This document shows positions 4,978 to 44,375 of a stretch of DNA of 64,000 bases, piece after piece. A program made the translations under genes and the position numbers. Source of the DNA: a bacterium (GTDB lineage Bacteria; Orphanbacterota; Orphanbacteria; JBJXGV01); contig JBJXGV010000073.1 of assembly GCA_046160485.1 (NCBI GenBank), positions 12,076 through 76,075 on the forward strand, written 5' to 3'. Under the pieces are notes generated by a model that was given only the letters and a program-made list of their open reading frames with translations, searched no databases and was not told the DNA's origin. Numbering within the stretch: position 1 is the first letter of the stretch; every line of letters begins with the position of its first letter.

Positions 4978-5054
4978 GGCGAGGGCGGCATCCTTGCGTC
5001 GCCGTGGCGCGGAGACTTCACTGGCTCTTAATCGAATCTTTACGTTTCATCGCG

Positions 5055-5100
5055 ATCATATCGAGCAATCATTCGCCCATAATCACGACGCTGGAATCGA
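5055..5100 (+). promoter_or_regulatory. Candidate Pho-box-like direct repeats upstream of pstS
   Basis: The sequence TTTCATcgcgATCATatcgagcaATCATtcgcccATAATCA has TCAT-containing half-sites at roughly 9-14 bp spacing. It ends about 15 nt before the pstS RBS. Confidence 0.3.
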
Positions 5101-5113
5101 AAGGAGATTCGAA

Positions 5114-6127: not shown

Positions 6128-6182
6128 CCCGGAGGCGCCACGGAGGCGCGGCGCACGGGCGCCGCGCCGGGGGCGAACGACG

Positions 6183-8029: not shown

Positions 8030-8880
8030 TGTCGGTAATGACAACCACGAAGGCCGCGATCGCGACACGAGCGCGCGGCTCGGAGGCGAAGATGTCCGAG
8101 CCTGAGACCACCACGCTTCCGGCGATTCTCGAGACGCGCGATCTCACGTTTCGATACGGGCAGACTGCCGCGGTCAAGAAGATCAGCATTTCGATTTTCG
8201 AGAATCGCATCACGTCGATCATCGGGCCGTCGGGCTGCGGAAAGAGCACGCTCCTGCGGACGTTCAATCGCATGAACGATTTCATCGCCGACGCAACGAT
8301 CGAAGGCGAGGTCCTCTACCACGGCACGAATCTCTATGCGAAAGACATCGACCCCGTGGAGGTGCGGCGGCGGATCGGAATGGTGTTCCAGCGACCGAAC
8401 CCGTTCCCGAAGTCGATCTTTCAGAACGTGGCGTGGGGGCCGACGATCAACGGCTACGGCGGTAAAAACGCCAAGCGGAGCCTCGAGGAACTTGTCGAGC
8501 GCTCGCTTCGCCAGGCTGGATTGTGGGACGAGGTCAAAGATCGCCTCGACAAGGGTGGGCTCGCGCTCTCAGGCGGACAACAGCAGCGGCTCTGCATCGC
8601 GCGCGCGCTCGCGCTGCAGCCCGAGATCATCCTGATGGACGAGCCGTGCTCCGCGCTCGACCCGGCGTCGACGGCGCGCATCGAAGATCTCCTCTTCGAG
8701 CTGGCCGAGCGGTACACGATCGTCATCGTCACGCACAACATGCAGCAGGCGGCGCGCGTCTCCGATTTCACGGCGTTCCTCGACACGGGCACGCTCATCG
8801 AGTTCGGCGTCACCGATCAGGTTTTCACGCGGCCGAAGGAAAAGCGCACCGAGGATTACGTCACGGGGCGGTTCGGGTAA
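8026..8880 (+). CDS. pstB: Phosphate ABC transporter ATP-binding protein PstB
   Basis: It has Walker [10 protein letters not shown], the ABC signature LSGGQQQRL, Walker B ILMDEP and an H-loop. It overlaps the pstA stop. Confidence 0.9.
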
Positions 8881-8919
8881 CATCGACGGGCGCCGATCAC
8901 GGCGGAGGGGTGGATCTGA

Positions 8920-9633
8920 ATGAAGCATCTTCAAAGGGATCTCGACCGGTTGAAGCGAGAGATCCTTCTTATGGGATCGATGGTCGAGGAAGCGACGAAC
9001 AAAGCGCTGTCGGCGTTTCTTTATCGCCGGCCCGAGCTTGCCGAGGCGGTCATGGAAGGCGACGACCGCATCGACCAGAAGGAACTCGACGTCGAAGAGG
9101 AGTGCCTCAAGCTTCTCGCGCTACACCAACCGGTCGCGGCGGACCTGCGTTTCATCATCGCCGTGATGAAGGTGAACAACGATCTCGAGCGGATGGGCGA
9201 CGAGGCGTACAACATCGCCGAGCGGGCGTCTTATCTCTCGGCGCACGATCCGATCGGCGTGCCGGGTGATTTCCCGGCGATGGTCGATCGCGTGAGGATG
9301 ATGGTGCGCGATAGCCTCGACGCGCTCGTCAATCGCGACACGAACCTCGCGCGGAAGGTGTGCCGCGACGACGACCTCGTCGACTCGACGCACCGCGAAA
9401 TGTACATGGCGCTTCAGGAGCGGATGCGCGAAAACCCGCAGACGGTCGAGCGTGCCGTGCGCACGCTCTCGGTTTCGCGTCACCTCGAGCGCATCGCGGA
9501 CCTCGCGACGAACATCGCCGAGGACGTTGTCTTCATGGTCGACGGCGACGTGATCCGCCACAGGACGCCCGGGCTCTCCGGCACACAGCACGCGGGCCTT
9601 CCCGACGCTGCTGACGCCGACAAGGCCCGCTAG
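8920..9633 (+). CDS. phoU: Phosphate signalling complex protein PhoU
   Basis: Two PhoU repeats are present (DLRFIIAVMKVNNDLERMGD and LSVSRHLERIADLATNIAE). It lies immediately downstream of pstB. Confidence 0.9.
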   Translation: MKHLQRDLDRLKREILLMGSMVEEATNKALSAFLYRRPELAEAVMEGDDRIDQKELDVEEECLKLLALHQPVAADLRFIIAVMKVNNDLERMGDEAYNIAERASYLSAHDPIGVPGDFPAMVDRVRMMVRDSLDALVNRDTNLARKVCRDDDLVDSTHREMYMALQERMRENPQTVERAVRTLSVSRHLERIADLATNIAEDVVFMVDGDVIRHRTPGLSGTQHAGLPDAADADKAR

Positions 9634-12126: not shown

Positions 12127-12576
12127 TTACTGGACTCGCACCTCGATTTGCTTGGGCTGCGACTCCTCCGACTTCGGGAGTGTGACGGTCAGGACCCCGT
12201 CCTTGTAGATTGCCTCGATTCTCTTGGCATCGATCGAGTTCGGAATCTGGAACGTCCGGGTGAACGCTCCGAAGCTTCGCTCGACCCGCGAGTAGCCCTT
12301 ATCCGACTCCGCCGTTTCGCGGTCGCGAGACCCGGTCACCGAAAGCGTTTCGTTCTGAACCGAGATCTTGATGTCCTCACGGCGCATCCCGGGAAGATCG
12401 ATCTTCACCGTGAAGTGCGCCGGCGCCTCGAGAACGTCCGTTGCGGGGAGCCAGTTTGCCGCGAGCGCTGGGGCACCGTTCCACGGCGCAGTGAACAGAT
12501 CCTGAATCATCGAGTCGAAGGCATCGTACGCGCGTTCGGTCGGCCTGGTCCGCGGGATCCACTTGACGAGTGTCAT
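12127..12576 (-). CDS. Hsp20/alpha-crystallin family small heat-shock protein
   Basis: It has an alpha-crystallin domain (FTVKIDLPGMRREDIKISVQNETLSVTGSR...GVLTVTLPK). Confidence 0.85.
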   Translation of the reverse strand: MTLVKWIPRTRPTERAYDAFDSMIQDLFTAPWNGAPALAANWLPATDVLEAPAHFTVKIDLPGMRREDIKISVQNETLSVTGSRDRETAESDKGYSRVERSFGAFTRTFQIPNSIDAKRIEAIYKDGVLTVTLPKSEESQPKQIEVRVQ

Positions 12577-12660
12577 TGAAAGCCTCCTTGCCCATCGCGG
12601 GCGTCTGCTTTGTGCTGGATTCGGGGCTCCGGTGGCCCCGGGTTTTCGAATCGCACGGAG

Positions 12661-12682
12661 GGTATAGCAGACGGCGTACCAA
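12661..12682 (-). promoter_or_regulatory. Sigma-54 (-24/-12) type promoter upstream of the Hsp20 gene
   Basis: The minus strand reads CTTGGTACGCCGTCTGCTATACC. GG and GC are spaced exactly as in TGGCACG-N4-TTGC. The 3' half TGCTATACC is shared with the second sigma-54-like promoter at 30245..30260. Confidence 0.45.
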
Positions 12683-16928: not shown

Positions 16929-18374
16929 CTAGCCTTTGATGACGATGATCGGTTGCAAGCGAGCGACGCGGCGAGAGATCCCGGCGCCGGCGACGGTATC
17001 GACGACATCGCCAACGTTCTTATACGCGAGCGGCGCTTCTTCGCCCAACGTGGCGCGCTCCTTCGCGCGCACGACGACACCTTGCTCGCGAAGCTCTTTC
17101 TCGAGCGCGCCGATATCGACGCGACGTCTGGCGTCACCGCGGCTTCGCAAGCGCCCAGCGCCGTGACACGACGATCCGAAAGACTCCGCCATCGACTGCT
17201 CTGTGCCGACGAGCACAAACGATCCGCGCCCCATGTCGCCGGGTATGAGAACCGGCTGGCCGGAGTCGCGATACGCGTCCGGAATTTGCGCGTGCCCCGG
17301 CGGGAATGCGCGCGTTGCGCCCTTGCGATGCACGCACACACGTACGTTCTTTCCGCCGACACTGTGCGTTTCGAACTTTGCCATGTTGTGCGACACGTCG
17401 TACACGAGGCGAAGTCCGAGCTGGCCGATTCCGATACCGAAGACACGCGCGATGCTCTCCGCGGCGCGAACCATCAGAAGCTGCCGGTTCGCCCACGCGA
17501 AATTCGCCGCCGCGTTCATGGCGCCGATGTATCGTTCGCCGCTCGACGAGCGGATCGGCGCGCACACGAGCTGCCGGTCGGGAATATCCGGAAATCGCGC
17601 GGTGAATTCGCGCATCATCGCGCGAATCGAGTCGTCGCACACTTGGTGTCCGAGGCCCCGCGAGCCGCAGTGAATCAGGATCGCAGATTGTCCGAGATCC
17701 AAGCCGAATTTACGCGCGACGCCGGCATCGAAGATTTCAGAAACGAAATCGATCTCGAGAAAATGATTTCCGGAACCGAGGCTCCCGAGTTGGTTGCGTC
17801 CGCGCTCCCATGCACGCTCGCTGAGACACTCGGGGTCGGCGCCTGCGATGCATCCGTTCTCTTCGCAGTGATCAAGATCGGACGAGTGACCGATTCCTCT
17901 GCCGACGAGGTAGCGCGCTCCCTTGCGAAGTACCGCGGTTTCGTCGAGACGCGAGAGCGCGATCGACGAACCAGCGCCGACGCCGCACGGAATGTCGCGC
18001 GTGAGCGCGGATGCGACGGCATCGGCGCGCGCGGCGATCTCCTCGCGAGGGATGTTGATCGTCGCGAGACGGACGCCGCAGTTGATGTCGTAGCCGACGC
18101 CGCCTGGCGAGATCACTCCATCATCGACGTCCATCGCGGCGACGCCGCCGATCGGGAAGCCGTAGCCCCAGTGGATGTCGGGCATCGCCATCGAGTAGCG
18201 AAGAATGCCCGGCAGATGCGCCACGTTCGCGACCTGCTGCGGGCTCTGGTCTTTCTCGATGTCGGGAAGCATCGATTCGCGCGCGAAGATGAGTCCCGGT
18301 ACGCGCATCTTGCCGACGCGCGGAATCTCCCACCGGAATGTGTCGAGTTGTTTGTAGTAGATGCCCTTCATCAC
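16929..18374 (-). CDS. rtcB: RNA-splicing ligase RtcB
   Basis: The RtcB signatures GYDINCGVR, the metal-binding HCGSRGLGHQ, and the catalytic His context HNMAKFE are present over the full length. Confidence 0.9.
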   Translation of the reverse strand: MMKGIYYKQLDTFRWEIPRVGKMRVPGLIFARESMLPDIEKDQSPQQVANVAHLPGILRYSMAMPDIHWGYGFPIGGVAAMDVDDGVISPGGVGYDINCGVRLATINIPREEIAARADAVASALTRDIPCGVGAGSSIALSRLDETAVLRKGARYLVGRGIGHSSDLDHCEENGCIAGADPECLSERAWERGRNQLGSLGSGNHFLEIDFVSEIFDAGVARKFGLDLGQSAILIHCGSRGLGHQVCDDSIRAMMREFTARFPDIPDRQLVCAPIRSSSGERYIGAMNAAANFAWANRQLLMVRAAESIARVFGIGIGQLGLRLVYDVSHNMAKFETHSVGGKNVRVCVHRKGATRAFPPGHAQIPDAYRDSGQPVLIPGDMGRGSFVLVGTEQSMAESFGSSCHGAGRLRSRGDARRRVDIGALEKELREQGVVVRAKERATLGEEAPLAYKNVGDVVDTVAGAGISRRVARLQPIIVIKG

Positions 18375-18381
18375 GCGCTCA

Positions 18382-18864
18382 TCAGAGGTCGAGAAGTACG
18401 GTTGCTTCCCACGCGCCCGCGATGTCGCGAATCGAGAGACGATGGTAGGTCGCGGCCTTCACTTCTTTGTGGAGCGCGTGGCGCTTCGTATCGATCGCCT
18501 CGCCCCGCGCCGTCGCCTCGATCGCGGTATCAGAGATGTGCGTGATGTCGAACTCCCGGAAGAAGAGCGCCTCCGCGCTCGCGGCGCCGATGAGTTCGTT
18601 GAGCCACACCGCGAGGAGTTCCTCGCGATTCGGTGCGGCGCATGCGATGGGCCGCGCGGTTCGCAGTTCGACGCGATCCAGATCGGTCATGAGCGCGAAC
18701 GTGGCGCGCGCAGCCGCCGCAAAGAGCGCGCGCATGCCGGTCGCGCGAATCCGCAGCAGAGCGTCACTCGGGTGATCTTCCTCTTCGAACTCGGAACTCA
18801 ATGATTTGCTCACGATCGCCGAAAAGTGGTCGAAGTCCAAGAATGGCTCACCGTCAATTGACAC
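18382..18864 (-). CDS. Archease (RtcB activator)
   Basis: The 160-aa protein has N-terminal FEEEDHPSDALLRIRATGMRALFAAAA (archease H-x-x-D motif) and C-terminal KAATYHRLSI...GAWEATVLLDL. It lies immediately upstream of rtcB, 7 nt away on the same strand. Confidence 0.75.
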   Translation of the reverse strand: MSIDGEPFLDFDHFSAIVSKSLSSEFEEEDHPSDALLRIRATGMRALFAAAARATFALMTDLDRVELRTARPIACAAPNREELLAVWLNELIGAASAEALFFREFDITHISDTAIEATARGEAIDTKRHALHKEVKAATYHRLSIRDIAGAWEATVLLDL

Positions 18865-21648: not shown

Positions 21649-23784
21649 TTGAGGCAGAGCGATTACTTTTCGCACCCATCGGTCGACGAACAAGAGTACG
21701 AGGCATGGGCGGCGAAAATCGCCAGCGGCGATGTCGTGGGCTCCGGCGTGTTCTACGCGTCGCCGGTCTACCCGTACTTTCTCGGCGCGCTGTTCCGAAT
21801 TTTCGGCGAAGATCTCTTCATTCCGCGGGTCGTGCAGGTTGTCATTGGCGCGGCTCGCGCGCCGATCGCCGCCGCGTTTGCCGCCTTGTCATTCGGGCCC
21901 GCGATCGGTGTTGCGACGGGCGTCATCGTCGCGCTCTACCGGACGACGCTGTTCTACGACGTCTTCCTCCTCAAAGAATCGCTCGCGCTTTTCATTCAGG
22001 ACATCGCGCTCTTCGCGCTCGCGCTTGTGCTGTGGCGCGCACGTCGCCGCACCGCGTCGGCGGCCGGCGAGGTGTCGGTGCGCGCGCTCGTCCTGAGCGG
22101 CTTCCTCATGGGGCTTGCGGCTCTCGCGCGCGAGTATCTCGCGCCGCTGATCGCGTGCGGCGCGGCGATTCTCGCGCTGCACGTACGCGCACTCGAACGC
22201 GGCGCGCCTATGAGCGTGCCGGCGGAGAGGGCTACCTCCGGCCTCGCGAGTTGGCGCTCGCCGGCGCGCGCGGCCGCGCTCTTCGCCGCTGGCGCGGCGA
22301 TCGCGCTCTTTCCGGTCGCCATCCGCAACCTTGTCGTCGGCGGCGAATTCGTCCTCCTGTCGGCGCAAGGCGGGCAGAATCTCTATCTCGGCAACAGCCT
22401 CGCGAACCACACGGGGCTCGTGACGTTTCCGGCAAACGTCCGCTCTGACCCGATGACGCTCGAGCAGGATTTTCGCGCACTCGCGTCGCATCGCGTTGGG
22501 CGCGCGCTCGGCCCGACCGAGGCGTCGAACTACTGGCTGCGAGAGTCGCTGCGCGAGATGGGCTCTAATCCCACGCACGCGATCACGCTTCTCGCACGCA
22601 AGGCGCTTTTGTCGATCAGCGCTTTCGAGGTGCCCAACGTACTTTCCATCGGCTACTTCTCGCGCATCTCGCATTCGCTCGCGTGGAATCCTGTTCGCTT
22701 CGGCCTTCTGTTTCCACTCGCGGCGCTCGGCATTGCGGCGGCGCTTCGCGATCGCGAGAGGCGTTCGAGCGCGGCGCCCGCCCTCGCGGCGCTTGCCGTG
22801 GTCTTCTTCGCACTCGTCGCGTTTTACGTCTCCGATCGATACCGTCTGCCGGCTGTGATGCCGCTGGCGATGTTCGCTGCGATCGGCGCCGCGTCGATGT
22901 GGCGCGTCGTCGTCGCGGATCTCGCACGCGCGCCGCGACGAATCGGACGCGCCGCGATCTCCTGCGCCATCGTTGTCGCGTTCGCCGCTCTTTCGAGACT
23001 GCCGCTTCTCCCGGAGGGAAGCCGCGGCGAAGCGATGCCGCCCGCGAATCTCGGGAACTCGCTCGCGAAGGAGGGGCGATACGAAGAAGCGATCGCCCGC
23101 TACAACGAGGCGTTCGCAATCGAGCCCGACACCGACTTCGCGCTCTACGGAATCGCGGTCGTTTACGGCGATCTCGGCCGCCACGCGGAAGCCGTCGACG
23201 CCTTTCGGAAATACATCGCGAAGAATCCCTACAGCGCGCAGGCGTACTACAGTCTTGGCAACACCTACTTCGAGATGGGACGGCCGGACACGGCGCTCAT
23301 GGCGTTCGAAGCCGCGGTGCGGCTCGAACCGTATTACGCGGAAGCGCATTTCAACATGGGCGCCGTACGCCACGGCCTCGGTGAGCTTGGCGGCGCAATC
23401 GATGCGTACGAGGCGGCGACGCGCGCGGCCCCCAATCTTTGGCGTGCGTGGAATAACCTGGGAGTTGCGCTGCTTGCCGTTGGGCGGCGCGAGGAGGGCG
23501 TCGCGGCGTTGGAGCGAGCACTCGCCGACACCGGGTACGTCGAGCCGCGAATGAATCTTGCGGATTGTGTACTGCGCGACGACGCCGCGCGCGCGTCCGA
23601 GCTTTATGGCTGGGTGCTTGCGCGCGAGAAAAATACCGACGCGTTGCTCGGCCTTGCGCGTGCTCGAGCGAGCCTCGGCGATGCCGCCGCCGCGCGAATG
23701 CACCTCGAACTCTTCTTGCGCGTCGCTCCGCCCGACGATGCGCGCCGCGCCGGGGCCGAGGATCTCCTTCGAACGCTCGGCTAG
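21649..23784 (+). CDS. GT-C glycosyltransferase family 39 (PMT/ArnT-like) membrane protein with C-terminal TPR repeats
   Basis: About 450 aa of multi-TM sequence with the PMT_2-like YPYFLGALF motif are followed by TPR repeats (AIEPDTDFALYGIAVVYGDLGRHAEAVDAFRKYIAKNPYSAQAYYSLGNTYF...). The ORF as tracked begins at TTG, and a hydrophobic in-frame stretch upstream suggests the true start may be non-canonical. Confidence 0.65.
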   Translation: MRQSDYFSHPSVDEQEYEAWAAKIASGDVVGSGVFYASPVYPYFLGALFRIFGEDLFIPRVVQVVIGAARAPIAAAFAALSFGPAIGVATGVIVALYRTTLFYDVFLLKESLALFIQDIALFALALVLWRARRRTASAAGEVSVRALVLSGFLMGLAALAREYLAPLIACGAAILALHVRALERGAPMSVPAERATSGLASWRSPARAAALFAAGAAIALFPVAIRNLVVGGEFVLLSAQGGQNLYLGNSLANHTGLVTFPANVRSDPMTLEQDFRALASHRVGRALGPTEASNYWLRESLREMGSNPTHAITLLARKALLSISAFEVPNVLSIGYFSRISHSLAWNPVRFGLLFPLAALGIAAALRDRERRSSAAPALAALAVVFFALVAFYVSDRYRLPAVMPLAMFAAIGAASMWRVVVADLARAPRRIGRAAISCAIVVAFAALSRLPLLPEGSRGEAMPPANLGNSLAKEGRYEEAIARYNEAFAIEPDTDFALYGIAVVYGDLGRHAEAVDAFRKYIAKNPYSAQAYYSLGNTYFEMGRPDTALMAFEAAVRLEPYYAEAHFNMGAVRHGLGELGGAIDAYEAATRAAPNLWRAWNNLGVALLAVGRREEGVAALERALADTGYVEPRMNLADCVLRDDAARASELYGWVLAREKNTDALLGLARARASLGDAAAARMHLELFLRVAPPDDARRAGAEDLLRTLG

Positions 23785-26222
23785 CGCGACGCGCCGGCCG
23801 CGCCCGGCGCGAGAAACGCCAACCGTTGGCGTACAGCGTCGACGCCGGGTGAGAGCGCGAGCGCTTCGCGGTAGGCCGCCACCGCGTCATCGCGTCGGCC
23901 GCGGGCCTCGAGCGCGAGTCCGCGCGCGAAGTGAAGCTCCGCGTAGTGCGGGTACTTCGCCCGCGCGCGCGCGATGATCGATTCCGCGTCATCGAGGCGG
24001 CCCGCTTGAATCTCGATGAGTGCACGGCGAATCAACGCCTCGATCGCGTCGGGCGAGCGCGCGAGCACCGCGTCGTAAGTACGCGCCGCTTCGGCGTAGT
24101 CGCCCGCCGACTCGAATGCAGCCGCGCGCTGCGCCGCGGCGAAGCGTGCGTTGCGCGCGCCGATAACGATCGCGGAGCGCTCATCCGGGAAGACATCGCC
24201 CGCATCGCCGAGAAGCGCGGGATCAAAGATTTCCGAGTAGGGGAGCGCGATCGCGCTCGGCGGCAGCGCGCCGGAGGCCGGCGCGTCGAGTTCAACGCGA
24301 AACAATCGAAAGTACGAGTCTTGATAGACAGGCGTGAAGCGCGTCAATTGTTCGGGATGAAAGTGGAAAAGATACGCGGCGCACGATGTCGAGACGCGCA
24401 TCCGATCCGCCATATAGCGGTACGATTCCTTCGTGGTGTCGAGAAGCAGGTTCGCCTGATAGAGGAAGTACCGCGCGTTCCATTCCGCGCAGAGATTCCA
24501 CATCTCCTCCTCGGTGCCGTAGAGGGCAGCTCGCATGCGCCGTTCCTTTGCGCGCAGAGTGCTCGACTCGAACATCGAGTGAAGTGGAACCGGGTGCTCC
24601 GTGTCGGTGAGCACCATCGGGCCCGTCGGAAACCAGGTGAGAATCGCGTCGCGTTCCGGGATCTGCGATCGGACCCATGCAGCAAGCCGCGGATTCTCTC
24701 CCGGGTTCGTGACGGCCTCCGCGGGTCCCGTCCCAAAGCTCGACTCGACCCAGCGGCGCCACGGATTCTGATCTTGAAAGGCGCGCAGATACGCGATCTC
24801 GCAGTTTCCGAGTAGAGCCAGCGCGAGAAACGCGAAGCGTCGATGCCGCGGAGCCACGCTCTCCACCACGGCGGGTACGAGAATCGCGGCGAAAAAGACG
24901 AGAAAAACGATCATCCGCTCGACAAGAAGAAAACTCGCCGCAAAAAACAGCGCGAGGAGGAGCGCGAACACGCGCGGTGTGTCGATCTGGGTGCGCAGGA
25001 GTACGCGAGCGCCCGCGATGAGTGACGCCGGTCCCCACAACAACATCGTCGACAATGACAGCAGCGCGGTCGCTGCGTTCGGCGAGTTGAACGGGCCGAC
25101 CCAAAAGACGCGTGCCGCATCGGAGAGAAGCGCCGGGTTGTCGGGCTTAGCGCCGAGGAAGCGGAGTTTCGCGAGGATGAGCCCGGAGACGTGCGCGTAC
25201 TCGCCCTCGCCGCTTGGGAGAATGCGAGCCGCCGCCATCGCAACTCCGAACGCCGCGCATATCCATGCGGCGGAGACGACTCGCCCCGGACCACTCTTCC
25301 GCCAGAGCGCGAGCATGATCGCGAGCGCGGCAACCAGGATGAACCCTGTCGAGAGCAGGAACTTCTTCGCAAGCAGAACGGGGACCGCGACGCCGGAAAC
25401 GATGAGCACGAGCGATAACACCGTGAGCGTCCAGCGCAGCGCCGAGGCCTCCGCTGGCGTGCGGTCGGATTCGATCGTGGTGGGCGCGAGTCTCCGCGTT
25501 GCGATAAGCGTTGCCCAAAGTACGAGCGCGAATGCGAGCAGGTAAAATCGCGCAAGATGCCAGGTCGCAAGCCCGAGCGCGAGCGTTACGGCGGCGCCAA
25601 CCGCAAGGCCGCGGCTCCTTCGCCCGCCCCTCCACGCTGCGATGAAGAACGCGAACGACGCGAAGAGAAATGGCAGTGTGAAATCCTCGCGGACGAAATT
25701 CCAGATCGTCCTGCTGATCGATGCGGGTGACAGCGCGTAGGCGAGCGCGGCCACGAGCCCCGCTGCTGACGTTCGCCACAACGCGCGTGCGGCGAAGAAC
25801 GCGGCCGCGATCGAAAGACTGGACCACGCCGCGATGAATCCAGCGAGGTAGACGTGAAAAGGCGCGCCGCCGAGAAGCGGACGCAGTGCGCGGTACGAGA
25901 GTCCCGCGGCGTATTCCATCCCCATCGTGAACTCGCGAAGCGGAGCGACGCCTTCGGGCCATTGTGCGTCGCGATCGATTTCTGGGACAGCGACTCCCTG
26001 CGCGATCATTCGCGCGTAGCGATAGTGGAACGCCGACTCCGACCAGAAGATACCCGTGTCGTCTTGCGAAGCGAAGCGAGGGGATTCGAGGAAAGCTCGG
26101 TACTTGTAGGTCGTGCTCGCGAGAATGATCGCGAGGAGCGCGACGATGACGATAGGCCGGAGTTGCTGGTGTGTCGCCGCGCTCGCGCTCGCGGCGGCGT
26201 TGACATGGGGCGGCACCGTCAT
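23781..26222 (-). CDS. Large polytopic membrane protein (GT-C-like / DUF2723-TMTC-like) with C-terminal TPR repeats
   Basis: At 813 aa it has more than 12 predicted TM helices, a DDTGIFWSESAFHYRYARMIA motif region, and C-terminal TPRs (AGDYAEAARTYDAVLARSP...ELHFARGLALEARGRRDDAVAAYREAL). Confidence 0.55.
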   Translation of the reverse strand: MTVPPHVNAAASASAATHQQLRPIVIVALLAIILASTTYKYRAFLESPRFASQDDTGIFWSESAFHYRYARMIAQGVAVPEIDRDAQWPEGVAPLREFTMGMEYAAGLSYRALRPLLGGAPFHVYLAGFIAAWSSLSIAAAFFAARALWRTSAAGLVAALAYALSPASISRTIWNFVREDFTLPFLFASFAFFIAAWRGGRRSRGLAVGAAVTLALGLATWHLARFYLLAFALVLWATLIATRRLAPTTIESDRTPAEASALRWTLTVLSLVLIVSGVAVPVLLAKKFLLSTGFILVAALAIMLALWRKSGPGRVVSAAWICAAFGVAMAAARILPSGEGEYAHVSGLILAKLRFLGAKPDNPALLSDAARVFWVGPFNSPNAATALLSLSTMLLWGPASLIAGARVLLRTQIDTPRVFALLLALFFAASFLLVERMIVFLVFFAAILVPAVVESVAPRHRRFAFLALALLGNCEIAYLRAFQDQNPWRRWVESSFGTGPAEAVTNPGENPRLAAWVRSQIPERDAILTWFPTGPMVLTDTEHPVPLHSMFESSTLRAKERRMRAALYGTEEEMWNLCAEWNARYFLYQANLLLDTTKESYRYMADRMRVSTSCAAYLFHFHPEQLTRFTPVYQDSYFRLFRVELDAPASGALPPSAIALPYSEIFDPALLGDAGDVFPDERSAIVIGARNARFAAAQRAAAFESAGDYAEAARTYDAVLARSPDAIEALIRRALIEIQAGRLDDAESIIARARAKYPHYAELHFARGLALEARGRRDDAVAAYREALALSPGVDAVRQRLAFLAPGAAGASR

Positions 26223-26274: not shown

Positions 26275-29200
26275 TTACTCGAGACCGTAGCGGGCGATCT
26301 TATTCTTCAGACCGCGGCGCGTAAGGCCGAGCGCGGCGGCGGCGCGGCACTTGTTCCCCTTGTGCGTGCGCAGCGCCTCCCGAACCAAGCGAGTCTCGAT
26401 CTCTTCGACGACATCCGCGAGCCGCTTGCCTCGGCCGCCGGAGACAAGGGTCTCGCTCACGGGATTGCCGACGGTTTCGTCGGAGAGGTCGCGCGCATCG
26501 ACGAGGGCGTCGGATGAATTGAGCGCGACCGCTCGTTCGACTTCATTCTCGAGGTCGCGAATGTTGCCAGGCCAATCGTGGCTCTCGATGCACTCCATCG
26601 CTTCGTCGGAGAAACGAATGCCGGACTTCTTCATCTTCGTTTGGAAGGTGTTGAGGAAATGCTCGACGAGCATCGGAATGTCTTCGCGGCGCTCGCGCAG
26701 CGCGGGCAACGCGATCGCGATGACGCGGAGGCGATAGTAGAGGTCCTTCAAGAACTCGCCCTTTTCGACTTGCCCGCGAAGCTCGCGATTGGCCGCGACT
26801 ATGATGCGGCAGTCGACCTTCTTCACTGTCGTCGAGCCGACAGGCTTGATCTCGCGGCGGTCGACAACCCGCAGCAGTCGTTCTTGGAAATTGCGGCTCG
26901 TCTTGTCGATCTCGTCGATGAAGACCGTGCCGCCGTTGGCGATCTCGAAGAGCCCGCGCTTCTCCGTACCCGCACCGGTGAATGCGTTCCGCGCGTGACC
27001 GAAGAGCTCGCTCTCGAGGATTGTCTCGGAGAGATCGGCGCAGTTGATCGTGACGAACGGCCCGTCGCTCCAGCGGCTGATCTCGTACGCAAGAAGCCCC
27101 TTGCCGGTGCCGGTCTCGCCCTGAAGCAGAATCGTCGACGATGCGCCGGCGACCTTCTTCAGCATTTCAAGGATGTCGAGCATCCGGCGACTGCGCGTGA
27201 CCACCGCAGCGAAGGGCGATTCCGCCGGCGCTTCGGTGCTGGCGAGTGCCGCGTCGTCCGACACCAGGAGTCCGCGAAGGATGGACCCCGCCGCAACCAC
27301 GAAATGAAGTTCGAGCCGGCCGAAAGGCAGCCGGTCGTCGCTGGCGCTCCGGTCGACGTACAACAGCCCGGCCCGGCGGCCCGCCTCCATGATTGGAACG
27401 ATGATGTACGAAAGAACGTCCGCTTCGCCGCCGGAGAACTCGCCGTAGGAGATAACGGCCTCGCCATTCTCCAGTCGCTCGCGATGGCGCTCGGCGATCG
27501 AGCGGCAAAGACCACGCGCAGTCGGAAGGGCGACACCGTGGAGTGCCCGGACGCTTAGGCGCATCCCGTCGGACGCGGCGACGAACGCGCGATCCGCGCG
27601 CGCCGACTCGACGACCAGCGCGAGGACACTGGAAAGATCGGCGCCCGTCGCATGCGCGGAACGCCGGAGGTTCAAGAACTCCAAGTCGAGAGACGCTGTG
27701 TTCTGTGCGGTTTCCGTCTCGAGTTGCCGGCGCAGCGCGTCAATCTCGCGCAGCGCGACGTCGTCCGCTACCTGCGCGTTTGCGCGTTCGGCTTCGCGGA
27801 GCAGGCTGAGCGCCTCGAGATTGTTATGAAGCGACATCTCGACGCGGGCGCGTTCGATGAGAACTCCGCCGGCTTCCTGCGCGAGTCCGAGTCCACGGAA
27901 GAGTGCTTCCGCGCGAATGAGGTGGTTGCGGGCATCTGATGCGGAGCACCAGAGGCCTTCGCGGACGCGGCCCGCTTCGCGGAGAGTGCGCGCGAGTTCG
28001 AGCGGCGCGCCGAGCCTTTCGGCGTGGTGAATCGCGCGCGTGAACGCTGAGCGCGCCCGGTTCTTCTCGCCGCGTGTATGGAAAACGATGCCCAGAACCC
28101 GCAACGCAGCGCCCGCGAGTCTCCGGTCCTCGGTTCGCGCGGCCGCGCCGTACGCACGGCGCGCGGTGTCGAACGCGTCGTCGAGTTGATTGCGATGAAT
28201 GAGAATTTCGGCGACGCGGCGCTGGACGTCGGCATCGTGATCGGTCGGGCCCGACGAGATACTGCGTGAAATGTCGAGCGCCTCCCGGAATCGCAGCATC
28301 GCTCCGTCAAAATCGCCGCGCGCGGCAGCCAGCGCACCCGCTTCCTCGACCGCGGCGGCGGACTCGCGGCGCGCGCCACCCTCGCGGGTCGATGCGATGG
28401 CTTCACGAACGAGTTGCTCTGCTCGGTAGAACGAGCGACACCACCGCTCGATTCGAGCAAGCCCGAGCGATGCCCGCGCGACGCCGATCGCATCGCCAAT
28501 GTTGCGACTCATTTTGAGGCTGCGGTCGAAGAGCGACCTGGCGCTTCCCCAGTCGCCGGTATGCGAGTAGACGATCCCCAGGTTCAAGCAACGACGCGCC
28601 GTCTGGGAGTAGTTGCCGAGCGATTCGTCGATCTCGGCCGCACGGCGCAAGCACGAGATCGCGGACTGCCACTGCCCGAGGTTGTTATACACGACGCCCA
28701 GGCTGTTGAGCGCTTTCGCGGCACCTGCTTGATCTTCCGTCCGGCGGTATGTCGCCAACCCATCTTGGAAGAAGTGCTCGGCATCGCGTAGCCGACCCTC
28801 GCGAAGATACACAGCACCCACGTTCAGTTGGAGAAACGCGACTTCGGATTGCTCGTTCGTGTTCTTGAGTTTCTCGAGCGCGAGAAGCCCATGCTCGAGC
28901 GCATCAGTATGCTCGCCGCGCTTGCGGTGGATCTGCGCGAGAAACGCGTGCGCGTGACCAGCGGCGAGAGGATCAACGCTCGACGCGGCGCGAGTCTCCG
29001 ACAGCGCGCGCGAGCCCGAAGAGAGTGCCCCGTCGAGGTCGCCGAGTCCGGCACGGGCGCGGCCCGTCTTGAGTTCGATGCCGGCACGGCGTGCCGGCTC
29101 GATTGCGGGCCAATCGGGATGTTCAAGGATGCTGGTGAACTGAGCAAGCGCAAGCGCGTAGCTCTCCGACGTGAGGAACAGATCCCCAACGCGTTCTAGG

Positions 29201-29292
29201 GAATCAATTGTCCCTTCTTCCCCAATTTGCCGGGGAATGTCGGCTACTCGCTGGACCTCGTCATGAGGCCCGTGATGATTGGGTCTTTCCAC
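26275..29292 (-). CDS. Sigma-54-dependent transcriptional activator (bEBP) with N-terminal TPR array, GAF domain, AAA+ sigma-54 interaction domain and Fis-type HTH
   Basis: It has Walker A GETGTGKG, the GAFTGA-type loop region ESELFGHARNAFTGA, the arginine finger region DLYYRLRVIAIALPALRERREDIP, and a C-terminal HTH (AAAALGLTRRGLKNKIARYGL). The N-terminal 450 aa are TPR-like. Confidence 0.85.
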   Translation of the reverse strand: MERPNHHGPHDEVQRVADIPRQIGEEGTIDSLERVGDLFLTSESYALALAQFTSILEHPDWPAIEPARRAGIELKTGRARAGLGDLDGALSSGSRALSETRAASSVDPLAAGHAHAFLAQIHRKRGEHTDALEHGLLALEKLKNTNEQSEVAFLQLNVGAVYLREGRLRDAEHFFQDGLATYRRTEDQAGAAKALNSLGVVYNNLGQWQSAISCLRRAAEIDESLGNYSQTARRCLNLGIVYSHTGDWGSARSLFDRSLKMSRNIGDAIGVARASLGLARIERWCRSFYRAEQLVREAIASTREGGARRESAAAVEEAGALAAARGDFDGAMLRFREALDISRSISSGPTDHDADVQRRVAEILIHRNQLDDAFDTARRAYGAAARTEDRRLAGAALRVLGIVFHTRGEKNRARSAFTRAIHHAERLGAPLELARTLREAGRVREGLWCSASDARNHLIRAEALFRGLGLAQEAGGVLIERARVEMSLHNNLEALSLLREAERANAQVADDVALREIDALRRQLETETAQNTASLDLEFLNLRRSAHATGADLSSVLALVVESARADRAFVAASDGMRLSVRALHGVALPTARGLCRSIAERHRERLENGEAVISYGEFSGGEADVLSYIIVPIMEAGRRAGLLYVDRSASDDRLPFGRLELHFVVAAGSILRGLLVSDDAALASTEAPAESPFAAVVTRSRRMLDILEMLKKVAGASSTILLQGETGTGKGLLAYEISRWSDGPFVTINCADLSETILESELFGHARNAFTGAGTEKRGLFEIANGGTVFIDEIDKTSRNFQERLLRVVDRREIKPVGSTTVKKVDCRIIVAANRELRGQVEKGEFLKDLYYRLRVIAIALPALRERREDIPMLVEHFLNTFQTKMKKSGIRFSDEAMECIESHDWPGNIRDLENEVERAVALNSSDALVDARDLSDETVGNPVSETLVSGGRGKRLADVVEEIETRLVREALRTHKGNKCRAAAALGLTRRGLKNKIARYGLE

Positions 29293-29393
29293 GTTCTCCG
29301 CGCTCCCGCTCCGCGGGCATGAGTAACGGACCCGTTTCGATTTTTTGCGCTACGCCCTGTTTCCCGCTCCAAGTCACCCAACACTAACGTGCG

Positions 29394-29666
29394 TTAGAAG
29401 CTGATTCTCCTGAGAAAGTCCTTGAGTAGGAACGACTCGATCCAACGCAGCGCACTGATCTCGGCCGCGTAGCGTTCCATCCCGGAGAGCTTCGACGCGC
29501 GGCTCTCTTTCGGGTTCTCAACAATGGCGTGTCCTCGCAAGTCGAGCCCAGTGGGATCGACGTCTCCGCCAGTCGGCGGCGCAGAGAACGCACTGTGAGT
29601 ACCAGCCCCGATAAAGAGCGATGTGATGGTGATGATGAGGAGCAGGGAGATGATCTTGCGGATCAT
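29394..29666 (-). CDS. Small secreted hypothetical protein (90 aa) in a lower-GC patch
   Basis: An N-terminal signal peptide (MIRKIISLLLIITITSLFIGAG) is present, with a strong RBS GGGAGGAGAA. It lies downstream of a consensus sigma-70 promoter. Confidence 0.5.
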   Translation of the reverse strand: MIRKIISLLLIITITSLFIGAGTHSAFSAPPTGGDVDPTGLDLRGHAIVENPKESRASKLSGMERYAAEISALRWIESFLLKDFLRRISF

Positions 29667-29734
29667 GATTTCTCCTCCCAGCTGAGTGGGGATGAATCAC
29701 TTGGGAAGTCATAGAACTTCCCAAAACGTGGGCG

Positions 29735-29764
29735 ATTATAGGCCGCTGCTCAGAAAAGTGTCAA
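29735..29764 (-). promoter_or_regulatory. Consensus sigma-70 promoter (TTGACA-N18-TATAAT) driving the small secreted protein gene
   Basis: The minus strand reads TTGACActtttctgagcagcggccTATAAT. The predicted transcript begins with a perfect 9-bp hairpin UUGGGAAGU-ucuaug-ACUUCCCAA (29699..29722). Confidence 0.45.
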
Positions 29765-30012
29765 GGAAGCGTTTACGCAACGGTCTTGTGTTTGGCCCAT
29801 TCTGCTAATCGGCATTCAATTCCTTGTACTGAAGCATCTAACGGATTCGCGAACGCCACGGCCCAGTCGGAAATCGAACCGGGGTGGATCGTGTTCCCCG
29901 ATCCACCCCGGCCCCGTCAGGAATCGCGCATGCGTCCCGACGTGCAAACTTGTAACGAGCAGCTATAGGTGTCCTTTCTGTGCCTTCCGGCTTATCCCAA
30001 GCATGATAGTCG

Positions 30013-30195
30013 TTAAGCCTTAAGCGCGACTGGCTTCCTTGCCGGTACGACGCTCGGGATTTCGCGGAAAGGGAAGTCCTCAGGCATGTCGTCCACAGCC
30101 TCTTCCCAACCCCGGTTGACTCCGCAGAAACGGGCGACGACCACGGCAAGGATCACGTAGGCCAAGACGAGCGCGAATGCTACAACGTACATCAT
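30013..30195 (-). CDS. Small single-pass membrane protein (60 aa), paralogous to 38769..38990
   Basis: The sequence MMYVVAFALVLAYVILAVVVARFCGVNRGWEEAVDDMPEDF aligns with the 73-aa protein at 38769..38990 (VIALVYLAIALVVARMCSINSRWEDLVDRIP). A strong RBS GGAGGGAGG precedes it. Confidence 0.5.
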   Translation of the reverse strand: MMYVVAFALVLAYVILAVVVARFCGVNRGWEEAVDDMPEDFPFREIPSVVPARKPVALKA

Positions 30196-30244
30196 GTAAG
30201 TTCACCTCCCTCCAATTGGTAGCCCGTTCTATGCCATGTGGTAT

Positions 30245-30260
30245 AGCACTACGCGTGCCA
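30245..30260 (-). promoter_or_regulatory. Sigma-54 (-24/-12) promoter upstream of the small membrane protein gene
   Basis: The minus strand reads TTGGCACGCGTAGTGCTATACC. This is a perfect -24 TGGCACG with a correctly spaced GC at -12. It sits about 40-50 nt upstream of the ATG and within 1 kb of the sigma-54 activator gene. Confidence 0.5.
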
Positions 30261-30484
30261 ACTCCGAGCGTGCCGATCGTCGCTCCGCGATGATGCCCGC
30301 AATACGAGACCCATGACTAACCCTCAATTTTTGATTCGGTTAAGTGTTGACGATGTTCGGCAGGCGACTCCGGCGGCTTGGTGTCCCCGGCGTGAATTCA
30401 AGCGCGCGAGTGGCCGCTGTAAACCTGATGCTCGACGATGGGAGAGGCAGTACCCATTTCCGATACGAACGGGCGCAAGCCGCG

Positions 30485-31720
30485 CTACGTGCGCGGGTCT
30501 GCTGGTGGTCGGGGAGCGGACGCTGTCTTGAAGCGGACGGCGACCCGATCGACTTGATCCTGAATTAGCCGAACCAAGCGAGCGAGCATTTCAGCGTGGC
30601 CGAGCGACACGGAATGTCCGATCGGCAGATTGACCACGCCAGCAGCCACGGCGCGGGCGACCGGAAAGAGGCCGCGTGCGGCCGCCGAGCCAGGGGCCAT
30701 GAACTTCCGTGCGAGTGGAAGATCGGGGACCGCCGGGGAGAAGTACGCGCCGGTCTCAACGCCTTCGGACTCCAGTACCGATCGCAACGCGTCGCGAGAG
30801 AGGCCGAACTCTTCGGCGTGAACGCGAATCGAAAAATCACGGAACACGGGGAACGTGCCAGGCAGCGACGACTGAAAACCAATTCCGGGGATGTCGTTCA
30901 GAGCGGCTCGATACGTTCTCGCGAGCGCGCCGCGTCGTTCGATCTCCGTTTCGAGACTTTGGAGCGATCTGTCGGCCAGCGCCGCCGAGATCTCAGGCTG
31001 ACGTGCCGACGCGCCACGGCCCGTCCAGTCTCCTGCCACGCTGCGCCCATAGTTTCGCGCGGCCTGAAGTTCGGTCGCAAGACGCGCGTCGGCGGTGGTA
31101 ACCGCCCCACCCTCGCCGCCGCAGACCAGCTTGGACGGAGTAAAAGAGAAGACCTCAGCACTGCCGAGGGCGCCGACGTTTCGATCCGCGGCGCGTGCTC
31201 CGACCGCGTGTGCCGCGTCGAATATCAATCGCAGTCGGCGGCGCGCGGCGATCGACTCGAGGGCTGCAGCCGCCGCAGGGAAACCGGACGTGTGCACCGC
31301 AAGAATCGCAGACGTTCGCGGTCCGACGGCCGCCTCTGTCGCGACGGGATCGAGATTCCACGAATCCGCGTCAATGTCGACGGGGCGCGGGGTCAGACCG
31401 GCCGCCATGATGGCCTGGAGAACAGGCGGGAACACGTAGGCGGGTACGATGACCTCGCCCTCGAGTCGGAGTGCCTGAAGTAAGAGTGTCATCGCCGAGA
31501 GGCCGGAGGAGAATGCGATCGCGTAGGCCGCGCCCGTCTGTGTTGCAAGCGCGCGTTCGAATTGGCGCACGCGTGTTCCCTTCGTGAACTCACCCGACGC
31601 GAGGATTTGAAGAATCTCCGGCGCGAGCCGCTCAGAGTCGACGGACACCGGCCCGTAAAGCGGGAGGCCTGGCGCGAACGCGGGTTCACCGCCGAGAATC
31701 GCGAGTCGTTCAACAGACAT
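30485..31720 (-). CDS. DegT/DnrJ/EryC1/StrS-family PLP-dependent sugar aminotransferase
   Basis: It shows fold-type I aminotransferase features and the DegT-type PLP-Lys context FSFTPSKLVCGGEGG. Confidence 0.85.
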   Translation of the reverse strand: MSVERLAILGGEPAFAPGLPLYGPVSVDSERLAPEILQILASGEFTKGTRVRQFERALATQTGAAYAIAFSSGLSAMTLLLQALRLEGEVIVPAYVFPPVLQAIMAAGLTPRPVDIDADSWNLDPVATEAAVGPRTSAILAVHTSGFPAAAAALESIAARRRLRLIFDAAHAVGARAADRNVGALGSAEVFSFTPSKLVCGGEGGAVTTADARLATELQAARNYGRSVAGDWTGRGASARQPEISAALADRSLQSLETEIERRGALARTYRAALNDIPGIGFQSSLPGTFPVFRDFSIRVHAEEFGLSRDALRSVLESEGVETGAYFSPAVPDLPLARKFMAPGSAAARGLFPVARAVAAGVVNLPIGHSVSLGHAEMLARLVRLIQDQVDRVAVRFKTASAPRPPADPRT

Positions 31721-41846: not shown

Positions 41847-42578
41847 TTGTCAACAAGAAAATCGAGTTACGGCATTGATTTGCTCGCGTTCGGCGCACAC
41901 CCGGATGACGTTGAACTGACCGCGGGCGGGACTTTGGCGAAGGCGGTCCGCCAGGGCTACGCGGTCGGGATCGTCGATGCCACGCGAGGCGAGCTCGGTA
42001 CGCGCGGATCCGTCGCGGTCCGCGCACGCGAAGCAGCGAGGGCCGCTAGGTCGCTCGGCGTGAGAGTGCGAGAGAACTTAGGACTTCCCGACGGGCATCT
42101 TTCCGCTGCCCCCGATGGACTGAAGCGGGTCGTCGAAGTGCTGCGCACCCTCCGCCCGCGCGTGGTCATCGCCCCGTATTGGGAGAGTCGTCATCCCGAC
42201 CACCGCGCACTTTCAAACCTTGTTCGGGATGCATGCTTCTTCGCCGGGGTCAAACGCTGGCCTGCGCGAGGTCTCGCCGCCCGTCCGGCGAAACTCATAT
42301 TCGCAATCGCGTATACCGGCGCGGCTCCGAGCTTCTACGTCGACGTCTCCCGGGACTTCTCTAGGAAGCTAAATGCAATTCGCGCATATCGATCTCAAGT
42401 TGTCGGTCAAGACCGCCTCGGGGATGTCTTTCCGTCTGGCCGACCGCTGTTAAATGCCATAACTGTGATTCACGCCGGCTACGGCGCGTCGGCTCAGGTG
42501 GAGTACGCCGAACCGTTCTGGATGCGCGAGGCGATGCGAGTCGACGACGTGACCCGTCTTCCGCTCATCTCGATGTGA
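41847..42578 (+). CDS. LmbE/PIG-L-family N-acetylglucosaminyl deacetylase (BshB-like)
   Basis: The zinc-binding motif AHPDDVE and a downstream HPDH are present. A palindrome TTCTTGTTGACAAGAA abuts the start codon. Confidence 0.75.
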   Translation: MSTRKSSYGIDLLAFGAHPDDVELTAGGTLAKAVRQGYAVGIVDATRGELGTRGSVAVRAREAARAARSLGVRVRENLGLPDGHLSAAPDGLKRVVEVLRTLRPRVVIAPYWESRHPDHRALSNLVRDACFFAGVKRWPARGLAARPAKLIFAIAYTGAAPSFYVDVSRDFSRKLNAIRAYRSQVVGQDRLGDVFPSGRPLLNAITVIHAGYGASAQVEYAEPFWMREAMRVDDVTRLPLISM

Positions 42579-42941: not shown

Positions 42942-43727
42942 TCAAGAGTCGCTGGCTGGCTTGACCGGATCGAGCGGGAAGCGGAACTCGGGATCCGCGG
43001 CTGACAGTTCGGCGGCAACCTGGCGTAGCTTCGACTCGTACGCCTTTTCGTCGCCGGAGCCGAGCGAGCGCTTCCATGCGTTGTAGTGATCGAGAAACTC
43101 ATCGCGCCGCTGACGAAGGTTTTCCTCCCGCGCGAGCCCTTCGATGTCGCGACTGATGTGGAAGATTTCGCCAGGCGAGAGTTCCTTTCGGATGTTGAGG
43201 TACTCGCCGCGCATGTAAGAAAGAATCGAGAGGTACTTTTCGTAGCCCTCGGAGAGCTTCATCAGAACATCCGCCAATGCCCGCCGGTCCTCGCGCATCT
43301 GGCGTGTCAGCGCGCCGGCGATTTGGTAGTACGCCTTGCCGCGTAGGACGGCATCGCGGCCGCGCGAGTCCATCGTCGACAACGCAGTCCGCGGAGCGTC
43401 GAAGATTCCTTGCGAAAGAAGCAGATAGTCCGCGTTCACCTTGTACGTGATGAATTTCACGTAGTGATCGCGCGTGTACTGCAGCCGTTCGTAGATGTCG
43501 CTTTCGTATGCGGAGACGTACTGGTTCATCCAGCTGTGGTATTTCGCGTCGACGAGTGACGAGAGGAGCAACGCGAGATAGACGTTGACGTCTTCGTCGT
43601 AGACGTCGGCGTTCGATTCGAGGCCGGTCGCGATCCGCGAGTTGAGGAGCGAGTCCATGACGAATGAAACGACGGGCTCGGCGTCGCCCTGCTGCTTCGT
43701 CGTATTCACGAACCGCTTGATTTCCAT
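42942..43727 (-). CDS. Hypothetical protein (261 aa), tyrosine/lysine-rich, no recognised domain
   Basis: It is a clean ORF with coding-like composition, and no other ORF of similar quality overlaps it. Confidence 0.45.
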   Translation of the reverse strand: MEIKRFVNTTKQQGDAEPVVSFVMDSLLNSRIATGLESNADVYDEDVNVYLALLLSSLVDAKYHSWMNQYVSAYESDIYERLQYTRDHYVKFITYKVNADYLLLSQGIFDAPRTALSTMDSRGRDAVLRGKAYYQIAGALTRQMREDRRALADVLMKLSEGYEKYLSILSYMRGEYLNIRKELSPGEIFHISRDIEGLAREENLRQRRDEFLDHYNAWKRSLGSGDEKAYESKLRQVAAELSAADPEFRFPLDPVKPASDS

Positions 43728-44375
43728 TTGCTGCCTCCGAGGGCGATCGTGCGCTGCAAATGATCAGGCAATCGAAGTGCCAACCGTTAGCGACGCGTTT
43801 TGTGCGAAATCGCGCGGATCTTAGCAAGATGTTCCTCTCATCTCGCGTCGGGCGGATTTGAATTCGGGCAATGTGCGACGACCGTTCTCGTGCGGCGCGG
43901 TCCCGAACTGCAAAGAGCGGATTCCGGCTGTTCGTGCTCCAGTCGACTTCTGTTGGCTGGGGCGCGCGGGGCGTCGGCTTCGTCGAACGCGAATTCGCGC
44001 TGAACCTACGACGTGCCACCGCGCTACGCGCGATATACGCGCGCATGCAAGCCGCCGATCCCGGCACACCGATTGCCATCGACCCATCGCGCAGGCGACC
44101 CATTCGTAGGAATCATCAATGGGAAGGTCGGGGTCGCAGCGTCGGGGGAGGCCGCGCGAGGCTCGGTAGTTGGCATCGCTCTGGGATGCGCGCTCAGGTG
44201 AGGGAGCATGTCGTCTCGATCGAGCGAGAGCCGGGTCATGGGCCTCCCCTCGGACGAAGCCGGGAGAACTCTGAGGTTCGAGATCGACGGGGGTCGGTCG
44301 TTGGGTGGGGTGGTGTGGTGCGAGTTCCCGGCTTCGCCCGAGGCAACAAACCCGCGCGCTGCGGCGTGCGCGACG

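Follow-up and report, generated by a model that had tools for sequence, protein, structure and literature searches.

Introduction

Two described sigma-54 systems, PspF/pspG of Escherichia coli and Yersinia and ZraP/ZraSR of Enterobacteria, offer the closest comparison for a module that we analysed in a 64,000-nucleotide (nt) stretch of DNA from an uncultured bacterial lineage (contig JBJXGV010000073.1, positions 12,076 to 76,075; hereafter the window). In this module, a sigma-54 promoter of the -24/-12 class precedes the gene of a membrane protein of 60 amino acids (aa), and the gene of a bacterial enhancer-binding protein (bEBP) lies nearby. From the comparison with orthologous loci, we consider it likely that these genes form a transcription unit of the standard, enhancer-dependent sigma-54 type whose promoter is activated by the adjacent bEBP, and that an Hsp20 small heat-shock gene of the same window is separately controlled by sigma-54.

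According to PMC2763126 and PMC3068692, the PspF regulon comprises pspABCDE and pspG. The 60-aa gene resembles the pspG gene found in E. coli and Yersinia, which is monocistronic, encodes a small inner-membrane protein, and is read from a sigma-54 promoter under a bEBP in a membrane-stress response. However, neither the 60-aa protein nor the 90-aa protein encoded next to it has Psp homology (no Pfam or NCBIfam match), which places both outside the Psp family. PspF itself is under the control of PspA and has no domain for sensing; the bEBP described here, by contrast, carries its own TPR and GAF input region and reaches 244 bits against a PspF equivalog cut-off of 443.

The second system is zraP of Enterobacteria, a small envelope protein gene with its own sigma-54 promoter beside the regulator genes (PMC2831329). 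The AAA+/HTH part of ZraR is also the closest solved structure to the bEBP studied here (1ojl, E 4e-71). However, ZraR belongs to the two-component response regulators and has a receiver domain; our bEBP has neither such a domain nor an adjacent kinase, and its score of 258 bits is far from the 760 required by the ZraR equivalog model. ZraP, in turn, is periplasmic and soluble, unlike the 60-aa transmembrane protein that is the target here.

A GAF domain directly N-terminal of the AAA+ module is known from NifA, NorR, and FhlA; in NorR, according to PMC2941729, the GAF domain represses or releases the ATPase activity. The bEBP of the window differs from these proteins by an additional TPR array of ~450 residues before a weakly matching GAF, and its equivalog scores are far below the cut-offs. 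By analogy, the module would work like pspG/PspF or zraP/ZraR while being a member of neither.

A conserved sigma-54 promoter ahead of the 60-aa gene

The elements that carry the main finding are the following.

30245..30261, minus strand: sigma-54 promoter TTGGCACGCGTAGTGCT of the 60-aa gene, recognized by conservation, consensus, and position weight matrix (PWM) score
30013..30195, minus strand: gene of the 60-aa single-pass membrane protein, conserved in all syntenic loci
30450..30456, minus strand: TGGGTAC, a seven-base element put forward as the possible enhancer (upstream activator sequence) of the bEBP because of its invariance and position
26275..29292, minus strand: bEBP of 1005 aa (NCBI protein MFN0152578.1), recognized by its Pfam domains

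The 22-nt promoter site TTGGCACGCGTAGTGCTATACC (30261..30240, minus strand) has its 3' end 50 nt before the ATG of the small gene (30195) and 958 nt away from the point where the bEBP gene starts (29292), so the -24/-12 site that an earlier note on this DNA had placed before the small gene and within 1 kb of a bEBP is indeed present. The sequence TGGCACGCGTAGTGCT has a single mismatch to the 16-nt consensus TGGCACG-N4-TTGCW. The -24 GG (30259-30258) and the -12 GC (30247-30246) are exactly 10 nt apart, as the -24/-12 class requires, and the predicted transcription start is near 30234. In the window, whose G+C content is 64%, the pattern TGGYAY-N6-TGC matches four times against 0.49 expected (8-fold), and none of 100 shuffles reached four. 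Three of the four matches are intergenic and immediately 5' of a gene on the same strand. A sigma-70 scan found no alternative promoter 5' of the 60-aa gene.

For the comparison, we used nine distinct orthologous loci (numbered with the prefix L), taken from contigs of full-length bEBP relatives (85-62% identity) and from contigs found via the 60-aa protein; a metagenome scan contributed just 2 new loci. Scanning the GTDB representative genomes with the 60-aa profile gave one locus, L006 (Calditrichaeota), which was discarded as a false positive, the match being another frame of a flippase-like gene. TGGCA[C/T]-N5-[G/A]TGC is unchanged in all nine loci, 58-73 nt before the ATG, whereas the spacer of five bases and the DNA on either side are variable (mean column identity 55%). 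In the extended 3' half, the 60-aa promoters read, among others, TGCTATGGT, TGCTGTCCT, TGCTTTTGT, TGCTAAAAT, and TGCGACCCT. Judged from this alignment, the conservation pattern is the signature of a functional -24/-12 promoter. Retention of GG, GC, and their spacing in orthologous regions had been set beforehand as the test that could refute the promoters; all were retained, at nine loci for the 60-aa gene and at four for Hsp20.

The earlier note had also proposed to score both promoters with a PWM, and here the outcome was divided. We used a PWM trained on 18 known sigma-54 promoters of E. coli tabulated in PMC2831329. With it, the site at 30260 ranked first of 128,000 window positions with 15.7 bits, inside the range of real E. 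coli sites. The Hsp20 site ranked fourth with 13.4 bits, which is not above chance since the best random-sequence match averages 13.1 bits, and a third site (43783..43767) reached 11.9 bits, below that mean. As these two sites score no better than the best random match, the PWM score alone proves little, and the case for the promoters is carried by position and conservation in the alignments rather than by score.

Several candidates were rejected. A PWM built from the orthologous promoters was overfitted, missing the TTGGCACTTCGATTGCC site and over-scoring 30237..30220, and the E. coli PWM was used instead. Positions 36836 and 59957 also score high, but both lie inside genes in antisense orientation, and the 59957 site is without the GC. 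A tandem -24/-12 look-alike, ATGGCATAGAACGGGCT (30220..30237, minus strand), lies 24 nt 3' of the main promoter and inside the predicted 5' untranslated region (UTR); its GG is lost in L001 (TGCCAG), so it is probably due to chance. Within the 90-aa open reading frame (ORF), ~300 nt 5' of the bEBP gene, TGGTACTCACAGTGC (29590..29604, minus strand) fits TGGYAY-N6-TGC and is not conserved in L001.

A candidate enhancer locked in position to the promoter

In the window, TGGGTAC lies 196 nt upstream of the -24 TGG. The heptamer is present in 9/9 orthologous loci, and in each of them it precedes the -24 element by 186-203 nt. From the stop codon of the upstream DegT gene, by contrast, it is separated by anything from 14 to 222 nt; its position is thus locked to the promoter instead. 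Across the nine loci, it is the only invariant block 5' of the 60-aa gene apart from the promoter and the ribosome-binding site. In the 174 kb of the window plus loci, it occurs nine times, eight of them at this position. We therefore treat TGGGTAC as a candidate enhancer that the bEBP may bind; the HTH segment LTRRGLKNK of the bEBP is invariant, so a conserved binding site is expected. Between the heptamer and the promoter lies one further element.

30318..30345, minus strand: AT-rich patch AACCGAATCAAAAATTGAGGGTTAG, tentatively a bending site of the IHF type

Most orthologues have an AT-rich peak at the corresponding place, with AATCA[AC] as a recurring sequence. An enhancer combined with a bending site is the architecture of the psp promoters, and the 60-aa module would share it.

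The enhancer-binding protein

The bEBP contains a TPR array at residues ~100-500, a GAF-like region at ~554-668, a sigma-54 AAA+ module at 698-943, and a Fis-type HTH at 962-1002. The Pfam assignments were Sigma54_activat (PF00158, E 3e-55), HTH_8 (PF02954, E 3e-10), AAA_lid_14, and several TPR families. The TPR array plus GAF domain described in the earlier note is thereby confirmed, with the GAF borderline in the window protein (E 3e-4, 21.7 bits against a cut-off of 22.4) and detected in six of eight orthologues (best E 5e-7). Walker A (GETGTGKG), Walker B (FIDEID), the HTH segment, and the sigma-54 contact loop NAFTGA are invariant in the eight orthologues, so that AFTGA is kept.

Among the solved structures nearest to the AAA+/HTH parts, ZraR is followed by NifA (9qq6). 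The protein was below every NCBIfam equivalog cut-off in all 25 families (NifA, AtoC, RtcR, NorR, ZraR, NtrC, PspF, and others); for NifA, it scored 295 against 529. By its sequence, the 1005-aa protein is a complete bEBP outside any named orthologue group.

All features of the module, and the Hsp20 site as well, are on the minus strand. On that strand the DegT gene is followed by 290 nt of intergenic DNA, the 60-aa ORF, another intergenic region of 347 nt, the 90-aa ORF, ~100 nt, the bEBP gene, and the Dpy19-like gene. Every locus long enough to span these genes has the order DegT, 60-aa, 90-aa, bEBP, Dpy19-like.

The 60-aa membrane protein and its transcript

A strong Shine-Dalgarno sequence, GGAGGTG, is located at 30209..30203, between the promoter and the ATG of the 60-aa gene. 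In seven pairwise comparisons, pN/pS was 0.13-0.42, which indicates purifying selection; by this measure, the ORF is a real gene. The juxtamembrane motif ARFCxVNRxWE is invariant in the protein. In the AlphaFold model, residues 2-26 form a helix (pLDDT 96-98), residues 30-35 form a short one, and the tail is disordered; the protein is thus predicted to have a single transmembrane helix. The arginines directly after the helix suggest a cytoplasmic tail, and the short acidic tail probably faces that side.

No match to the protein was found in Pfam or NCBIfam. Among 5.8 billion proteins, the family forms 20 clusters, every one of them labelled hypothetical. An exhaustive HMMER profile search added 18 further marginal small proteins (P0261-P0278, 51-94 aa), which share the N-terminal transmembrane helix and a juxtamembrane [AG]R[FIL]C[AGS][VI]N..WE; the 60-aa protein may belong to a wider undescribed family.

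Downstream of the coding sequence, two transcript elements were recognized.

29917..29978, minus strand: conserved 3'UTR block of the 60-aa gene, kept in sequence in 8 loci though non-coding
29867..29911, minus strand: GC-rich hairpin resembling a terminator, CCGGGGTGGATCG-loop-CGATCCACCCCGG, followed by a T-rich tail; an equivalent hairpin is present in 8/8 loci

The 3'UTR block reads GAAAGGA...TATCGA...GCTAC...GGGTCCCAGGGGCGGWACCC and stands ahead of the terminator hairpin. It is kept over a large divergence, with counterparts in L001, L002, L003, L005, L010, L013, and L015, and its first hairpin in relatives is GGGnCC-CAGGGGC-GGnACCC. RNAalifold gave no convincing covariation for this 3'UTR. 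The block could be a small RNA derived from the 3'UTR or a protein-binding site. The terminator hairpins of relatives differ in stem sequence and have a T-run (TTTCCTTTTTCC, TTCCTTTTTT), whereas the window hairpin fails the strict T-run rule of the scanner. An Rfam scan of the window returned one tRNA alone, with no match in the 60-aa or Hsp20 locus.

The next gene has its own promoter.

29735..29764, minus strand: sigma-70 promoter TTGACA-18-TATAAT, 12/12 consensus positions
29394..29666, minus strand: 90-aa protein gene, conserved in every syntenic locus

All orthologous loci retain TTGAC-N18/19-TAnnnT, 62-77 nt before the 90-aa ATG. Since the terminator hairpin is followed by this separate sigma-70 promoter, the 60-aa gene would be a monocistronic sigma-54 unit. 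The sigma-70 promoter, of the housekeeping type, would serve the 90-aa gene separately from that unit, and with it probably the bEBP gene on one transcript. The 90-aa protein has an N-terminus like a signal peptide (read from its sequence), an invariant DPTGLD, and a conserved C-terminal RWIxxxL helix, with no match in Pfam or NCBIfam.

The Hsp20 gene and its promoter

The second gene with a -24/-12 element lies 17 kb from the module.

12127..12576, minus strand: Hsp20/alpha-crystallin small heat-shock gene, 149 aa (PF00011, 91 bits, E 5.5e-26)
12666..12682, minus strand: sigma-54 promoter TTGGTACGCCGTCTGCT of the Hsp20 gene, recognized by conservation

The 22-nt site TTGGTACGCCGTCTGCTATACC (12682..12661, minus strand) is 105 nt ahead of the ATG at 12576, which bears out the -24/-12-like element reported for 12661..12682. 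TGGTACGC-N3-CTGC (12682..12666, with the GC at 12668-12667) is unchanged in four distinct orthologues, with Hsp20 identities of 100, 82, 60 (L016), and 51% (L021). In the extended 3' half, the Hsp20 promoters read TGCTATGCC, TGCATTTCT, and TGCATACTG. All are located 100-121 nt before the ATG, in upstream DNA and flanks that are unalignable. The sigma-70 scan 5' of the Hsp20 gene found no promoter. On this conservation, the element behaves as a real -24/-12 promoter, so Hsp20 would also be sigma-54-dependent.

Sigma-54 control of such genes has precedents. IbpA-family proteins are among the predicted sigma-54 targets of a 2025 cross-phylum survey (PMC12316311), and ibpB of E. coli is an Hsp20-family gene with a sigma-54 promoter of the TGGTA -24 variant (TGGTAAATGGTTTGCT, compared with TGGTACGCCGTCTGCT here; PMC2831329). 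However, ibpB is also under sigma-32, and its site is within the ibpAB operon, whereas the present gene stands alone with one detected promoter 105 nt before it.

Directly before the Shine-Dalgarno sequence, the 5'UTR of Hsp20 (~80-100 nt; 12577..12655, minus strand) contains a hairpin whose pairing is preserved through compensatory change (GCCC/GGGC against GGCG/CGCC) in the comparison with L016, L019, and L021; a second hairpin, also GC-rich, is found further 5'. An additional layer of control after transcription, possibly temperature-dependent, is conceivable for Hsp20.

Proposed mechanism and the points against it

In the mechanism that we propose, the consensus sigma-70 promoter would transcribe the gene of the secreted 90-aa protein and probably also, as part of one mRNA, the bEBP gene. 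A signal received through the TPR array (a protein partner), the GAF domain (a small ligand), or both would lead the bEBP to assemble on its enhancer, for which TGGGTAC is the candidate. The DNA would loop over the AT-rich patch, the NAFTGA loop would touch sigma-54 RNA polymerase at TGGCAC-N5-GTGC, and ATP would serve to open the promoter. The product would be a monocistronic mRNA that ends at the hairpin terminator and encodes the 60-aa single-pass membrane protein. The sequences themselves show the promoters and their conservation, the domains of the bEBP, the gene order, and, for the 60-aa protein, that it is coding and of which topology class it is. The pairing of bEBP with promoter and with TGGGTAC, the nature of the signal, the co-transcription, and any function of the small protein are what we infer here, and an envelope-stress role is speculation.

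Several observations weigh against this mechanism. The gene rpoN was not found among the scanned genes of the 64-kb window. The contact loop of the bEBP starts with N where the canonical loop is GAFTGA. The assignment of the bEBP to the promoter comes from conserved proximity. TGGGTAC is a 7-mer further upstream than most characterised enhancers, and a dyad search around it found no clear partner and nothing consistent. Finally, the -12 region of some orthologues resembles an extended -10 element (TGCTATAAT in L013, TGCTAAAAT in L002), so a sigma-70 contribution is possible there. On the first of these points, a genome without rpoN seems very unlikely to us, given the conserved promoters and the invariant activation determinants of the bEBP.

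Alternative explanations

The earlier note had proposed that one TPR-GAF bEBP activates both the 60-aa gene and Hsp20, as a single envelope- or proteotoxic-stress regulon marked by an unusual shared tail, TGCTATACC. Both promoters are genuinely of the sigma-54 type, 17 kb apart on the same strand, and the window encodes just one bEBP. The two window sites agree at 17 of 22 positions, and their 22-nt joint pattern has 2 window matches against 0.05 expected. Within the window, the tail indeed has two occurrences, one at each of these promoters, and in an ~82-85% identical relative (L001 and L019, which may be different genomes) both promoters still read TGCTATG.

The tail is not conserved beyond this, however. 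The nine 60-aa promoters continue with TATACC, TATGGT, TGTCCT, TTTTGT, TAAAAT, GACCCT, TATCCT, TATAAT, and TATGAT, and since these nine extensions differ, the ATACC tail is not a conserved feature; the Hsp20 promoters continue with TATACC, TATGCC, ATTTCT, and ATACTG. In the genome of L003 and L016 (same contig), the two promoters read GTGCGACCC and CTGCATTTC, and in the probable genome of L002 and L021 (almost certainly one contig) they read GTGCTAAAA and CTGCATACT, with unlike tails in both cases. TGCTAT itself is ordinary and matches the general sigma-54 consensus; the atoD promoter of E. coli has TTGCTAT (PMC2831329).

In a k-mer comparison of the upstream regions, TGGGTAC was present in 8/8 60-aa regions and in 0/4 Hsp20 regions, and the two sets had no other motif in common besides GC-rich low-complexity words. 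The palindromic upstream activator sequences anticipated in the note did not appear either, as the dyad search upstream of Hsp20, like that around the heptamer, found nothing consistent. In sigma-54 systems, bEBP specificity lies in the enhancer rather than in the -12 tail. With TGGGTAC missing upstream of Hsp20 and no other common motif, nothing ties both promoters to one activator, and we regard the single regulon as unlikely. What the two sets of upstream sequences suggest is that both genes depend on sigma-54, a much weaker statement than a shared bEBP regulon; Hsp20 is most likely served by a different bEBP.

Less likely still is that the 60-aa promoter is real but responds to a bEBP whose gene lies elsewhere, with the adjacent bEBP controlling other targets. 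The indirect nature of the link and a candidate enhancer of seven bases leave room for this, and many bacteria have numerous bEBPs, according to PMC4641369. However, the 60-aa gene and the bEBP gene are adjacent in every recovered locus, down to 62% bEBP identity, and these loci contain no other -24/-12 site except the non-conserved one inside the 90-aa gene. bEBP genes also usually adjoin their target genes.

That the 60-aa element works, alone or in addition, as a sigma-70 promoter of the extended -10 kind (TGnTAnnnT), its -24/-12 likeness being incidental, is highly improbable. After TGC, A stands at the second position in 7/9 orthologues and T at the sixth in 8/9, and L013 and L015 (TGCTATGAT) look like extended -10 elements. 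What never varies, however, is TGGCA and TGC and the spacing between them, with TGGCA in what would be the sigma-70 spacer, where conservation is unexpected; the window hexamer TATACC is without the critical last T, the hexamers of L005, L008, and L003 are poor, the sigma-70 scan had no match at the element, and a complete bEBP is conserved beside it.

Other features of the window

The module is flanked by the following genes.

31720..30485, minus strand: DegT-family sugar aminotransferase gene, recognized by Pfam
26222..23781, minus strand: Dpy19-like/TPR membrane protein gene

The neighbourhood also includes a thymidylyltransferase and a PMT_2-like protein, which like the Dpy19-like protein is a TPR glycosyltransferase. 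Sugar metabolism and envelope glycosylation are represented; by association alone, this hints at the cell envelope.

A third sigma-54-type site, unreported in the earlier note, is TTGGCACTTCGATTGCC (43767..43783, minus strand), a perfect TGGCAC-N5-TTGC. It is 40 nt before the ATG of a 261-aa ORF (orf261, 42942..43727, minus strand), and ~590 nt of apparently gene-free DNA extend upstream of it to a cdaA-like gene at 44376. The ORF has no match in Pfam or NCBIfam, and no orthologue was found in the retrieved loci.

An archease-RtcB RNA-repair gene pair is encoded at 16929..18864 (minus strand). Unlike rtcBA of E. coli, it has no -24/-12 site in its 54-nt upstream region and no adjacent RtcR-like bEBP. 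A BshB1 bacillithiol-biosynthesis deacetylase (41847..42578, plus strand; 232 bits against the NCBIfam equivalog cut-off of 182.5) is a small clue to the thiol chemistry and affinities of the lineage. At 938..9633 (plus strand) there is an ordinary phosphate-regulon cluster with a two-component system like PhoB/PhoR, a phosphate-selective porin, transporter genes of the PstSCAB type, and PhoU.

Discussion

It is conceivable, though improbable in our view, that the 60-aa protein, the 90-aa protein, and the TPR-GAF bEBP form an undescribed envelope-sensing circuit in which the small protein feeds back via the TPR array. If true, a logic like that of Psp or MgrB would have been built from unrelated parts, and the wider family of small RFCxVNxxWE proteins would represent membrane-anchored regulators of a new class. 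From the 3'UTR of the 60-aa mRNA, a regulatory small RNA could then also arise, as CpxQ is processed from cpxP.

The likelier account, a standard sigma-54 unit with a nearby bEBP, leaves the understanding of sigma-54 systems unchanged. What it adds is a conservation-verified pair of sigma-54 promoters with a positionally locked candidate enhancer in an uncultured lineage, which would be one more lineage with a small heat-shock gene under sigma-54 control. Its practical value is in annotation, in a test system of promoter, activator, and candidate enhancer, and in a regulatory handle for a rare, unannotated family of 60-residue membrane proteins.

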